DNA from: Polyangiaceae bacterium
GTDB taxonomy: Bacteria; Myxococcota_A; Polyangia; Polyangiales; Polyangiaceae
DNA: 64,000 nucleotides
Direction: 5' to 3'
Assembly (NCBI GenBank): GCA_050287085.1
Contig: JBNKBE010000015.1
Span: forward strand, 64,001-128,000
The notes beneath the pieces were generated by a model. The model was not told the DNA's origin. It worked only from the letters and a program-made list of their open reading frames with translations, and made no database searches. Below are positions 19,281-28,285 of this stretch, one piece after another; the first letter of the stretch is position 1; every line of letters starts with the position of its first letter. Position numbers and translations under genes: made by a program.

Positions 19281-20351
19281 TCAGCTCTGGGTGCGATGGA
19301 AAGCACGGCGCCGCGTCAACCCCGCAGCCAATGCGAGCCCAACGACCGCCCAGCTCCAGGCCATGCCCGAACCTGCTCCCGGGACGCTGCTGCAGCCGCC
19401 CGCGGAGCCTGACCGATCGTCGGGAGCCACGCCAGCACCACCACTAGGAGCACCGGCCCCCGCCCCACCTGCAGCCGTTGCCATCCCGGCGCTCCCTGAG
19501 ACGGGCGGATCTGTCCCCGGTGCGCCGGCGACAGGCGAGTCATCGGTTGCATCAAATGGCGCGGCCCCCTCGGAGCCAAGCGCATCGTCCGGCGTCAACG
19601 ACAGTACCGCATAGCCGTTGATGAAGGTCACATTGCCCGGGGCGTGCTTTGAGAGGCCCTTCGGTGACTCCCAATTGGCCGTGGCCCAACCGGAGGGTTT
19701 CGTCGTGCCGTTGAAATCCTCACGCCACTCGAGCTTGAAAGCGCCGTCAGCATAGGAAGAGTACTGAACCCAGTTGATGTACTCGTGAACCGGCAGGATC
19801 GCCGGGTCAAAATTCCCACCAAAGCTGGCATCTCCCGGCCAGATGTTGAAGCGGATCTGCATCCCGTTCGCGGCATTCTCCGCGTAAGCCGCCGCAACAT
19901 CCCCGACCTCTCGACGAATCTCCACCCCATCAATGAACCAGGCGATGTACTCTGGCGTCCACTCATAGGTGTAGGTGTGGAACACTCCGCACAGGTCCTC
20001 GGTTCCATCGTAGGTCGCGTTGTGGGTCGCTTGAGGCAACCCGTATAGCGCGTTGGTCTCGAGCTCGCAGTTTGCCCGTAGCTTCTCGAAGTCTAGCTCG
20101 TTCCAGAACACCGAGGACTGTTCAGAGCCGTCCTTCCACATGAAGAACGAGCTCACCACACCATCACCCGCGGCGAATTGGACGCGCGCGTCAATGCGGC
20201 CGAATGAATAGCCTTTCGAGGTGTAGAGCTCCGCGCTGCTGACGGCGCCCGCCGAGCTGGCCACCAGAAGGGCAGCGAGCGCCGAACCAGAAGCTAGGAG
20301 GCTAGCAACCTTATGCGAAGCGTTTGATCGAATCATACTAACTGGAGTCAT
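19281..20351 (-). CDS. GH16 beta-glucanase (lichenase-like) with MYXO-CTERM anchor
   Basis: Signal peptide, 'SAELYT', catalytic 'WNELDFEK' (ExDxE), 'FHTYTYEWTP', C-terminal 'GGC...TM...RRR'. Confidence 0.9.
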   Translation of the reverse strand: MTPVSMIRSNASHKVASLLASGSALAALLVASSAGAVSSAELYTSKGYSFGRIDARVQFAAGDGVVSSFFMWKDGSEQSSVFWNELDFEKLRANCELETNALYGLPQATHNATYDGTEDLCGVFHTYTYEWTPEYIAWFIDGVEIRREVGDVAAAYAENAANGMQIRFNIWPGDASFGGNFDPAILPVHEYINWVQYSSYADGAFKLEWREDFNGTTKPSGWATANWESPKGLSKHAPGNVTFINGYAVLSLTPDDALGSEGAAPFDATDDSPVAGAPGTDPPVSGSAGMATAAGGAGAGAPSGGAGVAPDDRSGSAGGCSSVPGAGSGMAWSWAVVGLALAAGLTRRRAFHRTQS

Positions 20352-20365
20352 CCGGCACCTTTCAT

Positions 20366-21685
20366 TCAAAGTAGTACTGGGCGCTGCCGACGACGGCGGC
20401 CCACCAAGCTCAACAACGCGCCGAGGAATGCGGCGCTCAGAATCAGCCCAACGCGCTGCGGAGCGCGCGACCCGACGCTCTGGCATCCGCCACCACCGTC
20501 GTCGCCCGGGTCGCCCACAAACCCGGGCGCACCCGCCAGGGAAGGAGCGCCGGCGGACTGTGCACCGGCGCTGGGGCCACTGACTTCACCCATTTGGCCA
20601 GCGGCTCCCCCGGCTGCGCCATCCCCGCTTGTACCGGCGGGTGCCGGTGGATCACCCACTCCGGCCACGCCGCCCGCGGCGGCGCCTGCCACTCCACCCG
20701 CGCCGGCTCCACCACCAGCTCCGCCTACGCCAGCTCCGCCTACGCCAGCTCCACCCGCGCCAGCGCCCGCTGCTGCCATGCCCGCGGCGCCCGAATCCCC
20801 ACTGCCTGAACTCCCCCCTTCAGCGATGCTTCCCTCTCCGCCACCACCCGGGTCAGTCATGCCGCCACCGGCGCCGCCTCCCGCGGGGTCGTCGGGATCC
20901 ATGGGAGCCATGCCCTCAAAACCGGTGGCGTTATCTGCCGTAAGCGCAAGCACAGCATAGCCATCCCTGAAGACGACATTGGCCTGGTTGTGGGTGGAGC
21001 GCCCCTTGGGAGAATCCCAATTTGCGGTCGCCCACCCCGAAGGCATGGCGTTGTTGTCGAAGTCCTCGCGCCACTGCAACTGGAACTCCCCGTTGGAGTA
21101 GGCCGAGAACTGGACCCAGTTGACGAACTGATAAACCGGCAAGTTATCGGGGTTGAAGTTGCCCCCGAAGGTTTCGTCCCCAGGCCACACATTAAAGTGC
21201 AAGCGCAGTCCACCCGCGACGTTGTCCCGAAAAGCCGCCGCCGTGTCCCCCACCTCTCGTCTGACTTCGGTATCGTCAACGAACCAGGCAATGTAATCCG
21301 GGGTCCATTCGTACGCGTAGGTGTGAAACTCGCCGCATAGGTCGCCCCGGCCATCGACGCTCGTATTGTGCGACGCCTCCGGATTGCCAAAGAGTGCATT
21401 GGACTCAAGACCGCAATCCAGCCCCACCTTCTCAAAGTCCAGCTCGTTCCAGAAGACTCCGGGGGTTTCTGACCCTTCCTTCCAGAGAAAGAAGGAGCCG
21501 ATTATTCCGTCCCCTGCAGCGAAGCGTAGTCGCGCCTCAAAGCGGCCGTAGCCATAGGCGTTTGTTGTGTATAGTTCTCCGCTGGTCACCGCATAAGCAG
21601 GTAACGGCAAACTTGCGCCGAGCGCACACACGTACCCTAAGACCCTGAGCGGGTTGTTGTTCACACGCCTTCGGAGTATTCGCAT
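20366..21685 (-). CDS. GH16 beta-glucanase paralog with long Gly/Ala linker and MYXO-CTERM anchor
   Basis: 'SGELYT', 'WNELDFEK', 'FHTYAYEWTP', C-terminal 'GGGCQS...TM...RRRR'. Colinear with the adjacent GH16. Confidence 0.9.
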   Translation of the reverse strand: MRILRRRVNNNPLRVLGYVCALGASLPLPAYAVTSGELYTTNAYGYGRFEARLRFAAGDGIIGSFFLWKEGSETPGVFWNELDFEKVGLDCGLESNALFGNPEASHNTSVDGRGDLCGEFHTYAYEWTPDYIAWFVDDTEVRREVGDTAAAFRDNVAGGLRLHFNVWPGDETFGGNFNPDNLPVYQFVNWVQFSAYSNGEFQLQWREDFDNNAMPSGWATANWDSPKGRSTHNQANVVFRDGYAVLALTADNATGFEGMAPMDPDDPAGGGAGGGMTDPGGGGEGSIAEGGSSGSGDSGAAGMAAAGAGAGGAGVGGAGVGGAGGGAGAGGVAGAAAGGVAGVGDPPAPAGTSGDGAAGGAAGQMGEVSGPSAGAQSAGAPSLAGAPGFVGDPGDDGGGGCQSVGSRAPQRVGLILSAAFLGALLSLVGRRRRQRPVLL

Positions 21686-21929
21686 TTGGTACTTGACCTT
21701 CCTTTGGTGCACCAAGTCGGGACACCTGGACCCACCGACAACAGCGGTCGTCGACGTCTCAGCAGGATGCACTGCCACAGGCCCCGAAGTTCGCATTTCT
21801 TGGGAAACACTCTAGGCTACGATTGCTGAGCCATTCCCCGAAGGTCGGAAGTCCTACAATGCAGCGGGCCCGCGTTGCAACGCCCCACCCTATCACCCAC
21901 TGCGCCGTTGTCCAACGCACTATTCGCCC

Positions 21930-22790
21930 GTGTCCGCTCCCATCTTGCACCAGAGCTTTCTGCCCCTCGGCCCCAACGCGGTAGACGCCTACGTCTGGAA
22001 GTTCTCCCTCGAGCATCGCGGACGCCGTCCTCGGCACTTCCACGTCGAGCCGGAGCTCAATCTCGTCGTCAGCGGTTGGGTGGAGTTCGGGGTCGGCGAG
22101 TCGGTTGTCAGAGCGTCAAAGGGTGAGCTCGTGGGCTTCCCGGCTGGGCAGGACCACGCGCTGCTCGCCACCTCGCCTGACGTCTTTCTCTTCGCCGTTG
22201 GGCTCAGCCCGCACTTGGCCTCCCAGGTCCTGGGAGCCTCAGTCGGAGAGGTTGCCGTCCCGCTGCACCTCAGGCTGAAGCCCCAGGAGCTCACGACGCT
22301 CACACGCAAAGCAGAGCTGGCGGTGGAACGCAGTGGCATTGAGCAGCCCTGCGCTGAACTGTGGGAGCAAGTCCATTGGCTAGGCCGTCACCGTCCCACC
22401 GGAAGGAGAGGTCCTCTCCACGCGTTGACGCAGAGAGCGCTGCAGGCCGTCGCTGAATCGCCGGAGCTCGGCCTGGAGGCCATTGCGCAACAAGCACGGG
22501 CCAATCCTTCGGAACTCAGTCGCTACTTCCACAGAGATCTGGGAATGACCTTCGTCCGCTATCGGACTCGCCTGCGCTTGCTGCGCTTCATCGAACTCAT
22601 CGAGCAGGATAGGGGGACGTGGGGCAGCGCGGCCATTGCCGCCGGGTTTGGCTCCTACTCGCAATGCCATCGCACTTTCCAGGCCGATATGGGCTGCTCT
22701 CCTCGCGACTTCTTCAAGGGCATCAAGCATGAAATGCAGCTCGCCTACGACGACGACGGGCTGGAGGTACCAACGCCCGCCGGGAACTAG
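21930..22790 (+). CDS. AraC family transcriptional regulator
   Basis: Cupin 'HFHVEPELNLV' and HTH 'LSRYFHRDLG...AGFGSYSQCHRTF...G.SP'. Divergent from the GH16 pair. Confidence 0.92.
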   Translation: MSAPILHQSFLPLGPNAVDAYVWKFSLEHRGRRPRHFHVEPELNLVVSGWVEFGVGESVVRASKGELVGFPAGQDHALLATSPDVFLFAVGLSPHLASQVLGASVGEVAVPLHLRLKPQELTTLTRKAELAVERSGIEQPCAELWEQVHWLGRHRPTGRRGPLHALTQRALQAVAESPELGLEAIAQQARANPSELSRYFHRDLGMTFVRYRTRLRLLRFIELIEQDRGTWGSAAIAAGFGSYSQCHRTFQADMGCSPRDFFKGIKHEMQLAYDDDGLEVPTPAGN

Positions 22791-22833: not shown

Positions 22834-23592
22834 TCATTGCGCTGGAATCTTGTACGCGTCCGCCATCAGATCGATCCCACATTCGAGGTTCTCGACCCAA
22901 TCGATGAACTGCCCGACGAGCTCCTTACCGCGAAACAGTGCCCCGTGCTGAGGTGCGATGATCTCAATATCCAACTGCCTGGCGAGCCCTGCCCACGCTC
23001 GCATCGCCTTGTTGCACGACATGTAGCGCTGATGAAAACCCAGCAGGTGCTCCACGTGCGCGTCAAAATCACTCACTTCGCGGTAGTCCGCTGACACACT
23101 CGCCCCCAAGTCGCCACTATAGAGAATCTTGGATACGGGGTCATAAACATGAAGGTTGCCGCAAGAGTGTAGGAAGTGCGCAGGCAAAATGTATAGCTCT
23201 GTGCCTCCGAGCAAGAGCCGCTGCCCTTCATCCGGCACCGCCTTGAGCCGCTCGGCCACCAGATTGTCGAGGCCGAAGTGAGGAATGAATCGAGTCCACA
23301 GACTGGGCGCCAGAGCCACTGCGTCAGTGGTCATCAACCAGCCATTGACCGCCGCTACGATGTCAGGATCTTGATGCGAAAGGAAGACGTAGCTCAGCTT
23401 CGCCGCCCCCAAGAGACCCGTCGTTTCGGAAAGCACCTTGCTGTAAATCTTGTGCCCGCCGGGGTCGAGGATCATGCCCTCGTCCCCATGCACGATCAGG
23501 TGCTGATTGGTGGAAACAGCTTGCCCTTGATCGAGGAGTGGAAGGAGCACGTTCCTATGCCCACTGTCCTCAAATAGTATCGTCGAACTCAT
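22834..23592 (-). CDS. ODP-type oxygen-binding di-iron protein (MBL fold, stand-alone)
   Basis: AAGGAG RBS, 'NQHLI...ILDPGG', 'SHQDPD', 'PAHFLHS.GN', 'YSGDLG', 'FHQRYM', 'IAPQHG'. No flavodoxin domain. Confidence 0.85.
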   Translation of the reverse strand: MSSTILFEDSGHRNVLLPLLDQGQAVSTNQHLIVHGDEGMILDPGGHKIYSKVLSETTGLLGAAKLSYVFLSHQDPDIVAAVNGWLMTTDAVALAPSLWTRFIPHFGLDNLVAERLKAVPDEGQRLLLGGTELYILPAHFLHSCGNLHVYDPVSKILYSGDLGASVSADYREVSDFDAHVEHLLGFHQRYMSCNKAMRAWAGLARQLDIEIIAPQHGALFRGKELVGQFIDWVENLECGIDLMADAYKIPAQ

Positions 23593-23623
23593 CGTCATCT
23601 CCTTAGAACCGGTCGTGACCACG

Positions 23624-24148
23624 TCATAGCCCTCCGCGCGAAAGCTCAGCCGCCAGCAGACGCAGAACGGCAGACTTTGACGCGCCGTCGAGGGGCCGCT
23701 CCGCCACGGCAGCGAATAGAAAAACCTGCTCGCTGCGAGTGAAGAAGAACGCGCTGACCCAACCCCTTGCAAGCTCCGTACAAATCACCGACGAGTCTCG
23801 CCCCTCAAGCTGACTGGCCTGTTCCAAACCCACCATCAGTCGCGCCCCCATGGCCTGAGCTTGCTCGGTCTCCACATCACCGCAGACAGCAATGAGCAAT
23901 CCTTCGTTGCCCAGGACAAACGTCGAACTAGCCTCCAACTCTCGTCTACACTCCGCAACGAGACGCTCCCAGCCACTGCTCTCTTTCGTGTCGCCAGTTG
24001 CCGTTGGGGCCGCGCGCCGGCGAACCCGTACGTAGGGCGACACAAGCGGCGACTTCGAGCCGCCGGCGGACGCCCCTCCACACAATTGGCGCGTCAGCTG
24101 GCGCGCCATCTCGAGGTCAAAGTAGCGATCGCAACGGTCTGTTGACAT
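23624..24148 (-). CDS. Divergent Roadblock/LC7-like protein with N-terminal extension
   Basis: AGGAG RBS inside parA. 'FVLGNEGLLIA...AQAMGARL' helix-strand pattern resembles Roadblock 'xxxGLxIA'. Confidence 0.55.
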   Translation of the reverse strand: MSTDRCDRYFDLEMARQLTRQLCGGASAGGSKSPLVSPYVRVRRRAAPTATGDTKESSGWERLVAECRRELEASSTFVLGNEGLLIAVCGDVETEQAQAMGARLMVGLEQASQLEGRDSSVICTELARGWVSAFFFTRSEQVFLFAAVAERPLDGASKSAVLRLLAAELSRGGL

Positions 24149-24932
24149 CGTTGTCTCCTGTATCGGTCATGTCGGCCATCAAGGTTTCGACTTCAGAGGC
24201 GAGCACGTCAAAACGCCTCGCTTCTGGACTCGTGCGCCCCGGCAGAAATGCCAAGGGGACGCCATGTAGACTCGCCGTCTGAAACACCGAAGCGCGCGGT
24301 ATGGTTGTGTCGAGCACGCCCTCAAAGCCCGTCCAAAGTTCAGCCATGACGCTCTGAGATGCTTCGTCGTTCCGGTCGACCATCGTCGGTAAAATGCCGA
24401 GCAACTTGAACGAAGGATTCTCCGTCTGCGCCACGTTCGACACCACCCTCAACGCCTGCACGGTCGAGCGCAGTGCTAGCGGCTCCGCCTGAAAAGGAAT
24501 CAACCCAAACTCCGCGTTCCGCATCGCCGCGCGGGTAGGCATCCCCAGCCCCGAGGGCGTATCCATGACTATGAGATCGTAGTCGTCCTGCACGCCCCCC
24601 AAAACACGGCGCAGCGTCTCGCCCTCGAAAAGTTCCAGCTCGAACTCGCATACGTCTACGGGATCGAGGCGTCCGCGTGCAAGCAGGGTGAGGTTGGCGA
24701 TCTTGGTGGGCGTTAGTGCCTCCGAAAGCGGAACGACTCCGGCCAACACGTCCGCAAGTCCAAGCAGCTCCGCGTCGCCACGTGCAAGCGCCAAACCGAT
24801 GCCGCCCTGGGGATCTAGATCAACCAACAAGGTCCGATGCCCCCTCTTGGCAAGGGCCAACGCAAGGTTGAGGGAAACAGTAGTCTTGCCAGTCCCCCCC
24901 TTCTGACTGAGCACAACAATCTTGTCTGTCAT
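24117..24932 (-). CDS. ParA/MinD family ATPase (orphan, no parB)
   Basis: Deviant Walker A 'QKGGTGKTT', 'VDLDPQG', 'DLIVMDTP', 'LLGILPTM'. Confidence 0.92.
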   Translation of the reverse strand: MTDKIVVLSQKGGTGKTTVSLNLALALAKRGHRTLLVDLDPQGGIGLALARGDAELLGLADVLAGVVPLSEALTPTKIANLTLLARGRLDPVDVCEFELELFEGETLRRVLGGVQDDYDLIVMDTPSGLGMPTRAAMRNAEFGLIPFQAEPLALRSTVQALRVVSNVAQTENPSFKLLGILPTMVDRNDEASQSVMAELWTGFEGVLDTTIPRASVFQTASLHGVPLAFLPGRTSPEARRFDVLASEVETLMADMTDTGDNDVNRPLRSLL

Positions 24933-24948
24933 CGAGGCTACTCCTAGG

Positions 24949-25914
24949 CTATTCAGCCACTTCTCTATGCTCGGACTCTGGGGGCAGCTCGACCCCAAGC
25001 TCACCAAGGCGCCGCAGATTGGCTCGCACTCGGCCGTCGTGGGGACGTAGAGCGGCCGCCTCGGTGAAGCTGCGCAGGGCCTGCTCATAGCTACGGCTTA
25101 ACAAGGCATCGACACCCGACTCCCAGGCTCGCTCGAACTGCACATCCTCAGCCGTCATGAATGTGCTCAATTCCGGCTCACTCTCCGGAACGGCATCATC
25201 GTCCGACGAATGGGGGAATGGCTTGCGGCCCGACGCCTCGAATCGCTTCTCCTCGTCCATGCGTCTAACCGCGTCAAGCAGCAGCACTTCCCAGCCCTTG
25301 TCGATGTTGATCTGCTCGGGACAGGACACAATCGACGCACAGGCGACGCGTGCGTCGTCCGCGAATGCCAGCCGGCAAAAGGCAGCTTCGCCTGCACCGT
25401 CTTCGTCTGCAGCGGCCACGACCTGACCTTTCCACACCTCAATACGTCCCAGCGGCTTTCCCTGTTTGGTGACGCGAAGTACTACCGAGTGATTGCCCAT
25501 GCACGCCAGCTGCAGGTAGTCGGTCACCCCAAAAGGACCCCCTTTGGGTTCGCCACCACCACCAATGCGCGACTGAACCACTTCTCGTAGCCGCTTCAGG
25601 GACACCGGCTTCTCGAGAACATCCACATCCGCGTGTTGTGGTATTTGCGACCGGTATGCTCTCAAGTACCCAGTAACGAAGACGACTGGCACGTGGAGTC
25701 CACGTCGCCCGAACTCGCCCAACAGCTCCAAACCGGAGCGCCCCGGCAAGTCGATATCCGACACGACAACATCCGGCGGGCTGCCGTCGATGACGCGCAC
25801 CGCGTCGTCAACTGTAGCACAGTCAGTCACTGTGACTCCGGGGAGCTTTCCAAGGCCCTTAGCCATGGTAAGCCGAAGCATATGCTCGTCCTCTAGGATC
25901 AATACTCGTGTCAC
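24949..25914 (-). CDS. Response regulator: REC + PATAN/DUF4388-like + C-terminal TPR-like helix pair
   Basis: 'LILEDE...VVSDIDLPGRSG...FVTG...KP', 'DYLQLACM...GRI....GQVVAA...GEAAF.RL...LLLDAVRRMDE', 'YEQALRSF.EA..LRP.D'. Confidence 0.85.
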   Translation of the reverse strand: MTRVLILEDEHMLRLTMAKGLGKLPGVTVTDCATVDDAVRVIDGSPPDVVVSDIDLPGRSGLELLGEFGRRGLHVPVVFVTGYLRAYRSQIPQHADVDVLEKPVSLKRLREVVQSRIGGGGEPKGGPFGVTDYLQLACMGNHSVVLRVTKQGKPLGRIEVWKGQVVAAADEDGAGEAAFCRLAFADDARVACASIVSCPEQINIDKGWEVLLLDAVRRMDEEKRFEASGRKPFPHSSDDDAVPESEPELSTFMTAEDVQFERAWESGVDALLSRSYEQALRSFTEAAALRPHDGRVRANLRRLGELGVELPPESEHREVAE

Positions 25915-25934
25915 CGCTTCGCCCTAACGTTTCG

Positions 25935-26300
25935 CTAAAGAATCTTATTTATCTCCCTCACCGCTCCGTCCATGTCCAAGAATATCAGTCCGAGTTTCGC
26001 GTCAGCGCTCGTCAGCACCAACAACATGGTACCCTGGGACGCGGTCCGCGTCACAGCAAATCCATTTTCCCCACGAATCAGGACCTGCCTCAACTCACCA
26101 CGCTCCAACTCGGTGGCCGCTCGAGTCCCTAGACTCAGTAGCGTCGAGCTCATTCCTGCGATCCGCATCTCGTCGACATGCTGTGGCAGTGCGCTGGCGA
26201 TCATCAGGCCATCGTCGGAAATGAGCGCGCTGGCTTCGATGTCGGGCGTTCCACTCTGTAGCGCCCTTAGTATTCTATTCAGTTCGTCTGTACGCGACAT
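25935..26300 (-). CDS. Roadblock/LC7 (MglB-like) protein
   Basis: 'IEASALISDDGLMIAS', 'ELERGELRQVLIRGENG', 'AKLGLIFLDM'. Confidence 0.92.
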   Translation of the reverse strand: MSRTDELNRILRALQSGTPDIEASALISDDGLMIASALPQHVDEMRIAGMSSTLLSLGTRAATELERGELRQVLIRGENGFAVTRTASQGTMLLVLTSADAKLGLIFLDMDGAVREINKIL

Positions 26301-26303
26301 GTT

Positions 26304-27383
26304 CTATTCCACTGCTTGGGTTGTTCTCTTCTTCAGCTTGAAGTCATGATTCGAGTCTGAACGTCGCATAGCGACTCCCCCTATTGGGATCGTAAGACGA
26401 ATCACCGTACCGCGCCCCAGCTCCGTATCTATGTCGAGTTGACCCCTGGTGGAGGTGACCGCGCTCAACACCAAGGTCAGCCCAATGCCGGAGCCCTTAG
26501 CCTTGGTCGTGTAGAAGAGATTGCAACACCGGGCGCGACTCTCCTCGCTCATTCCACAGCCCGTATCACTCACCTCGATTCTTAACTCTTGAGCGTTGCT
26601 GTCGAAGCTGGCTCTGAGCGCAACCTCGTCGCCGGGTTCGCAGGCGTGCAGCGCATTGGTCATGAGATTGAAGACGACCCCGCGCAACACCGCAGCGTCC
26701 AGAGGCAGCAGCGGCATACCCCCGACTTCGCAGCGAAGCTTGATGCCCTGCTCTTGGGCGCGTCTCGTAAATACGCGATGCACTTCCTGAAGAGCGTAGT
26801 CTATCGCTTGATTCCGATTCGAAGGAAGCTCGCGCCCCCCCGACCCCAATCCGTCGAGGGTCAAGCTCATGCGTCGAATCTCAGTCAAGACTGCATGAAG
26901 GTCAGCTTGCACTCGCCCCGCGGGCAGGTCTTCAAGGAGCAATTCAACAGCGGTTCCGACCGAGGCCAACGGGTTCTTCAACTCATGAAGAATCGCCGGA
27001 AGGGCTTCGGATACGGCGGCCATCCGCAACAAGCGGTCTCGCTCTTCTCGAAGTCGTTCGAGCTCGGTGACGTCCTCAAGCACCACGCTGACCCCTGCAT
27101 CGTCAGGAAGGCGACCGACAGAATAACCCAACACCGACCTCCGCCCAGAGGCAGCGGCAGCGTCCTCCTGAACGCCGCTATCCGCATTGTCCGCTACAGC
27201 CAAGAGCGCACTCATCGGAGCCACCAATTCTTCGATGTGCCCCCCCACGAGGTCTGCGATGGGACGAGCAAAGACCTTTGCGGCGCGCGCGCTCGCCTGC
27301 GTAACGGTTCCTGAAGCGTCGACCACCAGCACCGCAGCAGCGAGCGTTTCAAGCACCTGGCTTGAATTGAGGGAGGTGTTCAC
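26304..27383 (-). CDS. Cytoplasmic PAS-domain sensor histidine kinase
   Basis: PAS-like 'AVLVVDASG.V...S..A..VF', H-box 'HELKNPL', N-box 'NLMTNA', 'DTGCGM', 'FYTTK', 'GSGIGL'. No TM segment. Confidence 0.92.
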   Translation of the reverse strand: MNTSLNSSQVLETLAAAVLVVDASGTVTQASARAAKVFARPIADLVGGHIEELVAPMSALLAVADNADSGVQEDAAAASGRRSVLGYSVGRLPDDAGVSVVLEDVTELERLREERDRLLRMAAVSEALPAILHELKNPLASVGTAVELLLEDLPAGRVQADLHAVLTEIRRMSLTLDGLGSGGRELPSNRNQAIDYALQEVHRVFTRRAQEQGIKLRCEVGGMPLLPLDAAVLRGVVFNLMTNALHACEPGDEVALRASFDSNAQELRIEVSDTGCGMSEESRARCCNLFYTTKAKGSGIGLTLVLSAVTSTRGQLDIDTELGRGTVIRLTIPIGGVAMRRSDSNHDFKLKKRTTQAVE

Positions 27384-27880: not shown

Positions 27881-28285
27881 ATGTCGGATATTCCCGCCCT
27901 CACCCAGCCAGTTTCAATGATCATGACCACCGGGGACTTGGTCACGGTCGATTCGGAGGACGACGTTGCTGTCGTCCGCGCGATCTTTGCAGAAGGGCAC
28001 ATCAACCACATCCCCGTCTTGAGTGACGCTCGACGTCTCGTTGGCGTCGTGGCATCGGCCGATCTGCTCCAATTGGAGTCCAAGCTGGAGAGCTCGAGCG
28101 CCCGTGTCACCGTCGGTGAAATCATGACTCGCAACATCGAAACGGTTGACGCAACGACTGAGGTCCGTCGCGTCGCAGAGTTGCTCAGCCTGGGCACCTT
28201 TCATTCCGTGTTGGTGACCGACACCTCCGGCGAACTGCTCGGTATTGTCACCAGCGGCGACGTGCTCCGCGCCGTTCTGGCCTGA
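27881..28285 (+). CDS. Tandem CBS-domain protein
   Basis: 'VSMIMT...HIPV...LVGVVASADL' and 'VGEIMT...LLGIVTSGDVL'. Confidence 0.9.
   Translation: MSDIPALTQPVSMIMTTGDLVTVDSEDDVAVVRAIFAEGHINHIPVLSDARRLVGVVASADLLQLESKLESSSARVTVGEIMTRNIETVDATTEVRRVAELLSLGTFHSVLVTDTSGELLGIVTSGDVLRAVLA

Follow-up and report, generated by a model that had tools for sequence, protein, structure and literature searches.

Between positions 22,834 and 27,383 of a 64,000-nucleotide stretch of Polyangiaceae bacterium DNA (contig JBNKBE010000015.1, positions 64,001 to 128,000, hereafter the window), six co-oriented genes on the minus strand encode a histidine kinase, a canonical Roadblock protein (RB1), a response regulator joining a receiver (REC) to a PATAN domain, an orphan ParA-family ATPase, a divergent Roadblock protein (RB2) and an oxygen-binding di-iron protein (ODP). 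This six-gene cluster is real, conserved and assembled from known parts, and as a system it is probably undescribed. In the reading we favour on sequence grounds, with a probability of roughly 0.55, the products would form a complex responsive to O2 and iron, which the second Roadblock protein would position either statically, via peptidoglycan, or dynamically, via ParA.

A conserved operon around an ODP and a Roadblock protein

In operon order, the six open reading frames (ORFs) are the following:

26304..27383, minus strand: soluble PAS histidine kinase, 359 residues, start uncertain (Pfam PAS, HisKA and HATPase_c)
25935..26300, minus strand: RB1, canonical Roadblock/MglB-family protein, 121 residues (Pfam Robl_LC7, 3e-15)
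24949..25914, minus strand: REC-PATAN(DUF4388)-TPR-like response regulator, 321 residues (Pfam Response_reg and DUF4388)
24117..24932, minus strand: orphan ParA-family ATPase, 271 residues (Pfam AAA_31/CbiA)
23624..24148, minus strand: RB2, divergent Roadblock domain (alignment, structure model and fold search)
22834..23592, minus strand: ODP, oxygen-binding di-iron protein family, 252 residues (Pfam PF19583)

This order and the intergenic gaps of 3, 20, 16, -32 and 31 bp, both reported in an initial annotation of the window, were reproduced from the ORF coordinates, and the domains given there were confirmed by Pfam for five genes and by a structure model with fold search for gene 5. The RB2 and ParA ORFs share 32 bp at the ParA stop, and the kinase start (GTG at 27383) stands without a clear ribosome-binding site and is hence uncertain. 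In agreement with the same annotation, no transmembrane (TM) helix is evident, the highest 19-residue hydropathy window among the six proteins being 1.57 compared with 2.06-2.41 in four membrane-anchored relatives, and neither a GTPase (Pfam and motif scan) nor an adjacent parB (Pfam) was found in the operon.

Conservation was followed in 60 relatives, in a sample of 400 genomes evenly drawn from the phylum and in 127 annotated ODP loci, namely the best 80 of 477 confirmed metagenome matches, 39 phylum loci, 7 relatives and 1 further genome, with 7 of the 127 chosen via ParA. The annotation relied on profiles built from those loci and on Pfam for two selections of 32 and 55 proteins; as short contigs are frequent among the metagenomes, counts in metagenome loci are lower bounds. 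The complete set stands together in 7/60 relatives (5/17 within the same genus), where the ODP gene follows RB1 in five and comes last, like in the window, in two. All six genes are likewise present in 18/127 ODP loci, i.e., 17 distinct ones as L190 equals L250 in sequence, and the six-gene form occurs in four genomes of the phylum sample (G338, G448, G209, where it is found twice, and G040), in which an ODP of this subfamily (E < 1e-90) is encoded by 38 of the 400. Homologues are labelled Polyangiaceae and Myxococcales, with few Nitrospiria. Because all six recur in these relatives and ODP loci, the genes co-occur beyond chance, and the gene set that the initial annotation took as a unit is indeed conserved in other genomes.

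By sequence comparison, gene 6 is a true ODP and not FprA, as first annotated. It matches PF19583 with 226.7 bits (cut-off 27.2, E 3e-67) and the solved ODPs 6QRQ and 6QNM with E 2e-66 and 8e-56, as against only 7e-5 for flavodiiron proteins. It is a stand-alone domain of metallo-beta-lactamase fold, without a flavodoxin match in Pfam, carrying HQDPD and later His/Asp motif residues, which we take to be the iron ligands, and its metal-site motif residues agree with those of the solved ODPs. Residues D161, H187, R189 and H216 are invariant in the 129 aligned sequences; the invariance of HQDPD and H139/H142 is by construction, these being the row-selection criteria of the alignment, which D161, H187 and H216 were not.

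Near the ODP, the 127 loci hold RB1 in 105, the kinase in 51, an OmpA-type protein in 51, REC-PATAN in 45 and ParA in 22, and more rarely an AAA_22 ATPase fused to RB1 (10), MglA (4) or a protoglobin (4). RB1 accompanies the ODP in 69/80 metagenome loci and in 28 of the 39 long phylum-sample loci, of which 18 hold the kinase; the kinase is found in 0/10 of the loci with the AAA_22-RB1 fusion. Among seven more distant ODPs of the same phylum, taken as a control, Roadblock matches number 0/7 and chemoreceptor (MCP)-like genes stand near 5/7; an MCP-like ORF is near 2/127 ODP loci, on the opposite strand in both, and no adjacent co-oriented chemoreceptor gene was found at the window ODP by Pfam and neighbourhood scan. 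Since RB1 is common near this ODP and the distant ODPs stand without Roadblock, the subfamily is tied to Roadblocks, and the conserved core is ODP with RB1. RB1 itself is 67-81% identical across the seven relatives, with 7F8M as best solved relative (E 2e-26). A plasmid search found only distant ODPs.

Several variants of the neighbourhood were observed. RB1 forms the C-terminal part of a fusion with an AAA_22 ATPase, which we take to be ExeA-like, and is then followed by ODP and OmpA in L129, L134, L139, L147, L153, L154, L164, L169, L172 and L174. In L231, L234 and L236, additional Roadblocks, RB1 and ODP come after a Ser/Thr kinase (Pfam-checked in L231), which apparently replaces the histidine kinase. 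MglA-type ODP operons (L130, L247, L249 and L252) encode a helix-hairpin-helix protein, together with an HU-like protein in L252, and a protoglobin gene lies within the ODP-Roadblock operon of L119, L141, L162 and L176 (Pfam-checked in three).

It is very unlikely that this ODP homologue senses another signal (iron alone, nitric oxide or peroxide) or is an enzyme, or that the locus is a conflict or defence system. Recruitment of ParA lineages to immunity is frequent (bioRxiv 10.64898/2026.10.19.760177), and a nitrogenase link is absent from the phylum sample; against such functions stand the metal-site motif shared with solved ODPs, with its four residues kept in 129/129, the protoglobin in four loci, the lack of an effector gene, and PADLOC, which returned just two weak generic matches, so that the defence reading was rejected. 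The candidate nitrogenase link itself (nifD in 3/8 six-gene genomes versus 1/53 others, n = 61) was rejected as a general explanation on nifD occurring in 0/400 genomes of the sample where 38 carry the ODP; NrdD, with 0/61 genomes, was uninformative. On contig C10 of the genome studied (G000, 174670-181785), a nifD above cut-off and a nifH-like gene were observed, nifD being also present in G003, G006 and G024.

The ParA and OmpA tails

Forty loci, some of them kindred, combine kinase, RB1, REC-PATAN and ODP, and here the remainder of the operon takes two mutually exclusive forms, i.e., a ParA-RB2 tail in 18 and an OmpA tail, for the most part with a Roadblock anchored in the membrane, in 17, with both in 0 and neither in 5. 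Of these last five, three are on short contigs (L140, L180 and L261), L239 shows nothing but an RB2-like gene in duplicate, and L243 none. Across the 127 ODP loci, ParA was found together with OmpA, or with MglA, in 0. In the OmpA tail, Pfam confirmed the OmpA domain in 5/5 proteins, whose N-terminal segment is hydrophobic, and the product of the next gene combines a hydrophobic N-terminus with long helices and, by fold search, a Roadblock fold; homologues of this adaptor are labelled mainly Beta- and Gammaproteobacteria. Each tail thus carries a Roadblock fold, although the profile likeness between the two is weak (E 7e-4, probability 26%), and both would consist of a divergent second Roadblock with a holding device. 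Of all the observations, this swap speaks most strongly for a spatial role, which the comparison of loci suggests. The spatial output proposed in the initial annotation thereby gains new support from the OmpA-type sister operons.

The same annotation had ParA filling the place of MglA, which finds no support in that form, since ParA alternates mainly with the pair of TM-OmpA and TM-Roadblock proteins (51/127 loci). MglA lies near just 4/127 ODP loci, without further GTPase in a motif scan, which bears out the expectation that homologous operons do not routinely include MglA. A replacement of MglA by ParA is not seen in a quick ODP tree either, where the four MglA loci fall within one starred branch of seven rows, and loci of the ParA and OmpA types intermingle on weakly supported branches, the starred branches forcing just two ParA changes; the direction of the swap and the ancestral tail are not readable from this poorly resolved tree.

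RB2 is composed of a conserved N-terminal helix (about 12-22), a variable linker and a divergent Roadblock domain (about 54-170), as seen in the alignment and the model. Its Pfam Robl_LC7 match is weak (E 0.05), and the assignment of gene 5 to the Roadblock fold is made on the predicted structure (pLDDT 82.5), for which the top Foldseek match is Myxococcus xanthus MglB (E 1.6e-6) and the superposition on 3KYE gives Z 13.9, a root-mean-square deviation of 2.5 and 113 aligned residues.

ParA keeps intact KGGxGKT, DxD and Walker B motifs (K11 in 119/120; K16, D38, D40 and D124 in 120/120) and falls in a clade of considerable size (at E 1e-60, 834 clusters out of 8000 scored), which a quick tree, like all our ParA trees, sets apart from 63 parB-linked ParAs. 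Positions equivalent to R189 and R218 of Soj, where they are DNA-binding residues (PMC3778016), hold a basic residue in 10 and 0 of 120, as compared with Arg in 59 and 56 of the 63 controls, and position 215 is acidic in 101/120. As read from the alignment, this ParA appears to be without the Soj DNA-binding arginine pattern and keeps its catalytic motifs. Its C-terminus, where the membrane-binding MinD/FlhG type has an amphipathic helix, shows a polar linker and a conserved RxLL. Of the two marks of the PriB1 ParA (bioRxiv 10.64898/2026.10.19.760177), a Gln two residues after DxD and an Asn ahead of Walker A, the first is found in 119/120 (Q42), whereas at the second, position 9, Ser stands in 111 sequences and Asn in the other 9. 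A scan of the genome collection with the ParA alignment was saturated by generic Walker A patterns, with 1/80 close match and the rest used as controls. A separate Soj-like ParA is encoded on contig C2 of the same genome, and two Verrucomicrobiota records (L038 and L099) hold a ParA of the same wider clade, with an RB2-like gene directly after it in L099.

ParA and RB2 appear to travel together. In 28/29 loci (L195 being cut), ParA and the ORF downstream share 14-47 bp at the ParA stop, and the RB2 profile matches 14/16 new ParA loci, L293 giving a weak Pfam Roadblock match and L296 none. The N-terminal motif of RB2 is not just an artefact of the overlap, because it is also present where the genes do not overlap (L099 and L293). 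The pair is also seen away from any ODP: its neighbours are then TPR/PATAN and V4R-like genes, a second copy in the same genome being among these cases, and in one locus (L289) it shares a run of genes with MglA. As such, gene context makes ParA-RB2 a separate, portable two-gene module. In the same genome, L034:7067-11812 (G000 contig C14) encodes a TPR protein, ParA, an RB2-like protein, a 200-residue unknown protein, a 421-residue protein and a 120-residue protein; the 421-residue protein, with a V4R lead in 17-23% of cluster members, follows ParA in 11/24 loci, of which two are profile builders. L289 (G170) aligns in one orientation MglA, REC, REC-PATAN, PATAN/TPR, Roadblock, PATAN-Roadblock, ParA and RB2, with no ODP match in the genome.

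The ParA-Roadblock complex prediction advised in the initial annotation weakly suggests binding. A model of two ParA with ATP, Mg and RB2 scored 0.58, the best of three controls reaching 0.00, on a scale where the mark was met by 116/157 solved and 2/215 mismatched pairs, and where just 18/157 solved pairs and both mismatches lie at 0.60 or under; runs agreed in at least 70% of contacts, with a partner pLDDT of at least 70.

Proposed mechanism and its output

In the kinase, phospho-His133 and the ATP-binding boxes are intact, with H133, N239, N243, D273, G275, G277, G299 and G301 invariant in the 12 aligned sequences. REC-PATAN, which scores 32.6 bits for DUF4388 (cut-off 25) with a weak TPR match (E 0.06), keeps receiver residues D53 and K102 in at least 90% of 15 aligned sequences and has no DNA-binding domain in Pfam. 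PATAN domains are reported to bind the pilus motor PilB1 in Synechocystis, and the genome encodes PilB, FlhA and CheW genes.

The positioned complex that we favour would operate as follows: (i) the ODP would report O2/Fe(II) status, as expected from its family; (ii) its partner would probably be RB1, its most constant neighbour; (iii) RB1 would pair with the second, divergent Roadblock, acting as a localisation adaptor; (iv) in the window, the soluble adaptor RB2 would bind the ATP dimer of ParA, probably via the conserved N-terminal helix, for a dynamic, ATP-dependent positioning that need not involve the nucleoid; (v) in the sister operons, an adaptor with an N-terminal membrane helix, beside an OmpA peptidoglycan-binding membrane protein, would provide a fixed anchor; and (vi) the kinase would phosphorylate REC-PATAN, where PATAN would act by protein contact, plausibly on the motility or polarity machinery. 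The direction of the signal and its output are what we infer from these parts. In a wider form, which we hold only tentatively, the ODP and two Roadblocks paired with each other may constitute a scaffold for oxygen signalling, so far undescribed and spread over several phyla, to which different anchors are plugged in, the second Roadblock being tied to peptidoglycan (TM and OmpA) or to a non-nucleoid ParA activated via the N-terminal helix, and RB1 serving three NTPase classes (ParA, MglA and AAA_22); were this the case, the location of a motility or polarity regulator would be under direct control of O2/Fe.

Two other arrangements of the same parts deserve weighing. Firstly, the Roadblocks could be accessory regulators of the genome's own MglA acting in trans, like MglB-RomY, so that O2 status would feed ordinary myxobacterial polarity with ParA as a helper. 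The genome holds mglBA and two more MglA-like genes, MglA is carried by the four ODP loci above, L289 joins MglA, Roadblocks, PATAN and ParA-RB2 in one run, and bipartite Roadblock GTPase-activating proteins are known (PMC9481161); however, RB2 is coupled to ParA and not to MglA, the fusion of RB1 to an AAA_22 ATPase in 10 loci means that RB1 partners are not limited to GTPases, and the OmpA-type adaptor is mainly beta- and gammaproteobacterial, by labels alone and with the MglA content of those genomes outside the count, and we consider this arrangement unlikely. Secondly, the ODP could act on the kinase itself, in a plain phosphorelay ending at REC-PATAN, with ParA-RB2 as an independent module riding the same operon. 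Intact kinase and receiver residues, the ODPs known from operons that hold signal-transduction genes of several kinds (PMC7319448) and the occurrence of ParA-RB2 without ODP would fit; yet the ODP keeps RB1 oftener than the kinase (28 vs 18 of 39 long loci), the kinase is missing from all 10 AAA-type loci and the tail always brings a second Roadblock in the same slot, which makes a plain phosphorelay quite unlikely.

Several points weigh against the positioned, O2-responsive complex itself. The exclusion count of 18 and 17 overstates independence, as the loci are kindred and 7 were chosen via ParA, and some 10 long loci carry the ODP alone. ParA-RB2 being found without ODP, its link to O2 is not obligatory. 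DNA binding by ParA may persist, because position 187 is basic in 109/120 and R239/R240 are nearly invariant. The ParA-RB2 result is a score without an interface, from custom alignments and ligands outside its calibration, and it may echo solved ParA-ParB or MinD-MinE complexes. With three MglA-like proteins encoded elsewhere in the genome, a GTPase could act in trans and be the real switch. Neither a nitrogenase tie at phylum scale (nifD 0/400) nor an upstream O2-regulator box common to the 30 kinase-upstream stretches was found; in these, no common motif was recovered, FNR-, CRP- and sigma54-like matches (counted without shuffle control) were scattered with 0 in the window, and the promoter scan was at chance level.

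A perfect FNR-like palindrome was observed upstream of the kinase in L152, 1 of the 30 stretches. Around the window operon, a cupin-AraC regulator (21930-22790) converges on its end and a CBS-pair gene (27881-28285) diverges from its start, both being beside the operon in 0/7 relatives. Further on, 19281-21796 holds a tandem pair of GH16 glycoside hydrolases whose linkers are Gly/Ala-rich and whose C-terminal tails, hydrophobic and basic, are presumably MYXO-CTERM-like.

Comparison with known systems

The operon places orphan Roadblock proteins in a concrete context, offers a candidate partner for an ODP away from chemoreceptor arrays, and opens a long-standing proposal, by which Roadblocks would regulate other NTPases besides GTPases, to tests with two small soluble proteins. 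The ParA/OmpA swap is a natural experiment opposing static and dynamic positioning of one signalling complex. To our knowledge, an input of O2 into the polarity of myxobacteria would be without precedent.

Literature searches, covering text outside subscription papers and figures, found neither an ODP with Roadblocks nor an alternation of ParA and OmpA. ODPs are described in operons with various signalling genes (Muok et al. 2019, via PMC7319448, PMC6978683 and PMC7666581), Roadblock with PATAN and MglA (PMC4316618), and many MglBs are orphans, with 328/749 orphan Roadblocks and none characterised at that date (PMC4316618). A displacement of MglA by certain ParAs has been stated for MglA-MglB systems (Li, Burroughs, Aravind, bioRxiv 10.64898/2026.10.19.760177), where ParA beside MglB-like genes without MglA is read as a switch, in one sentence and Fig. 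2B panel 16; the accessible text of that preprint has 0 matches to "oxygen", "PATAN" or "receiver", and its passages hold no ODP link or OmpA swap. The claim of the initial annotation to an undescribed composition thus stands for the ODP-Roadblock link and the ParA/OmpA swap, and not for the displacement of MglA by ParA.

The operon would work like a Roadblock-NTPase switch, but lies outside the MglA-MglB, conservon and ParABS families. With MglA-MglB(-RomY) of M. xanthus it shares two Roadblock-fold proteins, a P-loop NTPase and a PATAN regulator (PMC4316618), whereas here the NTPase is ParA (AAA_22 or none elsewhere), a coupled MglA is absent, an ODP and a soluble kinase are added, and RB2 has an N-terminal extension. 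The actinobacterial conservon (CvnABCD) likewise has a histidine kinase and a Roadblock in one operon, but the present operon is without the GTPase (CvnD), its kinase is soluble and not TM-HAMP, and a response regulator is present. ParABS differs by its parB, none being adjacent here, and this ParA lies outside the parB-linked clade. Orphan ParA/MinD positioning ATPases (ParC, McdA, MinD-MinE) resemble it in a ParA ATPase with a co-encoded partner likely binding the dimer (bioRxiv 10.64898/2026.10.19.760177), though here the partner is a Roadblock protein and the Soj arginine pair is not kept. PatA-type regulators share PATAN/DUF4388 and an intact receiver, in the reverse order of the REC then PATAN seen here. 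The OmpA-type sister operons are like Group 1 Rup GTPase neighbourhoods in their TM-OmpA, coiled-coil protein and kinase (PMC4316618), but were found without the Rup GTPase and with ODP and Roadblocks. Lastly, the ODP-chemoreceptor systems of Treponema denticola and Thermotoga share the protein family, the motif residues and a genetic tie to signalling genes (PMC7319448, PMC6978683, PMC7666581), their partner being an MCP, whereas the ODP of the present operon neighbours Roadblock.

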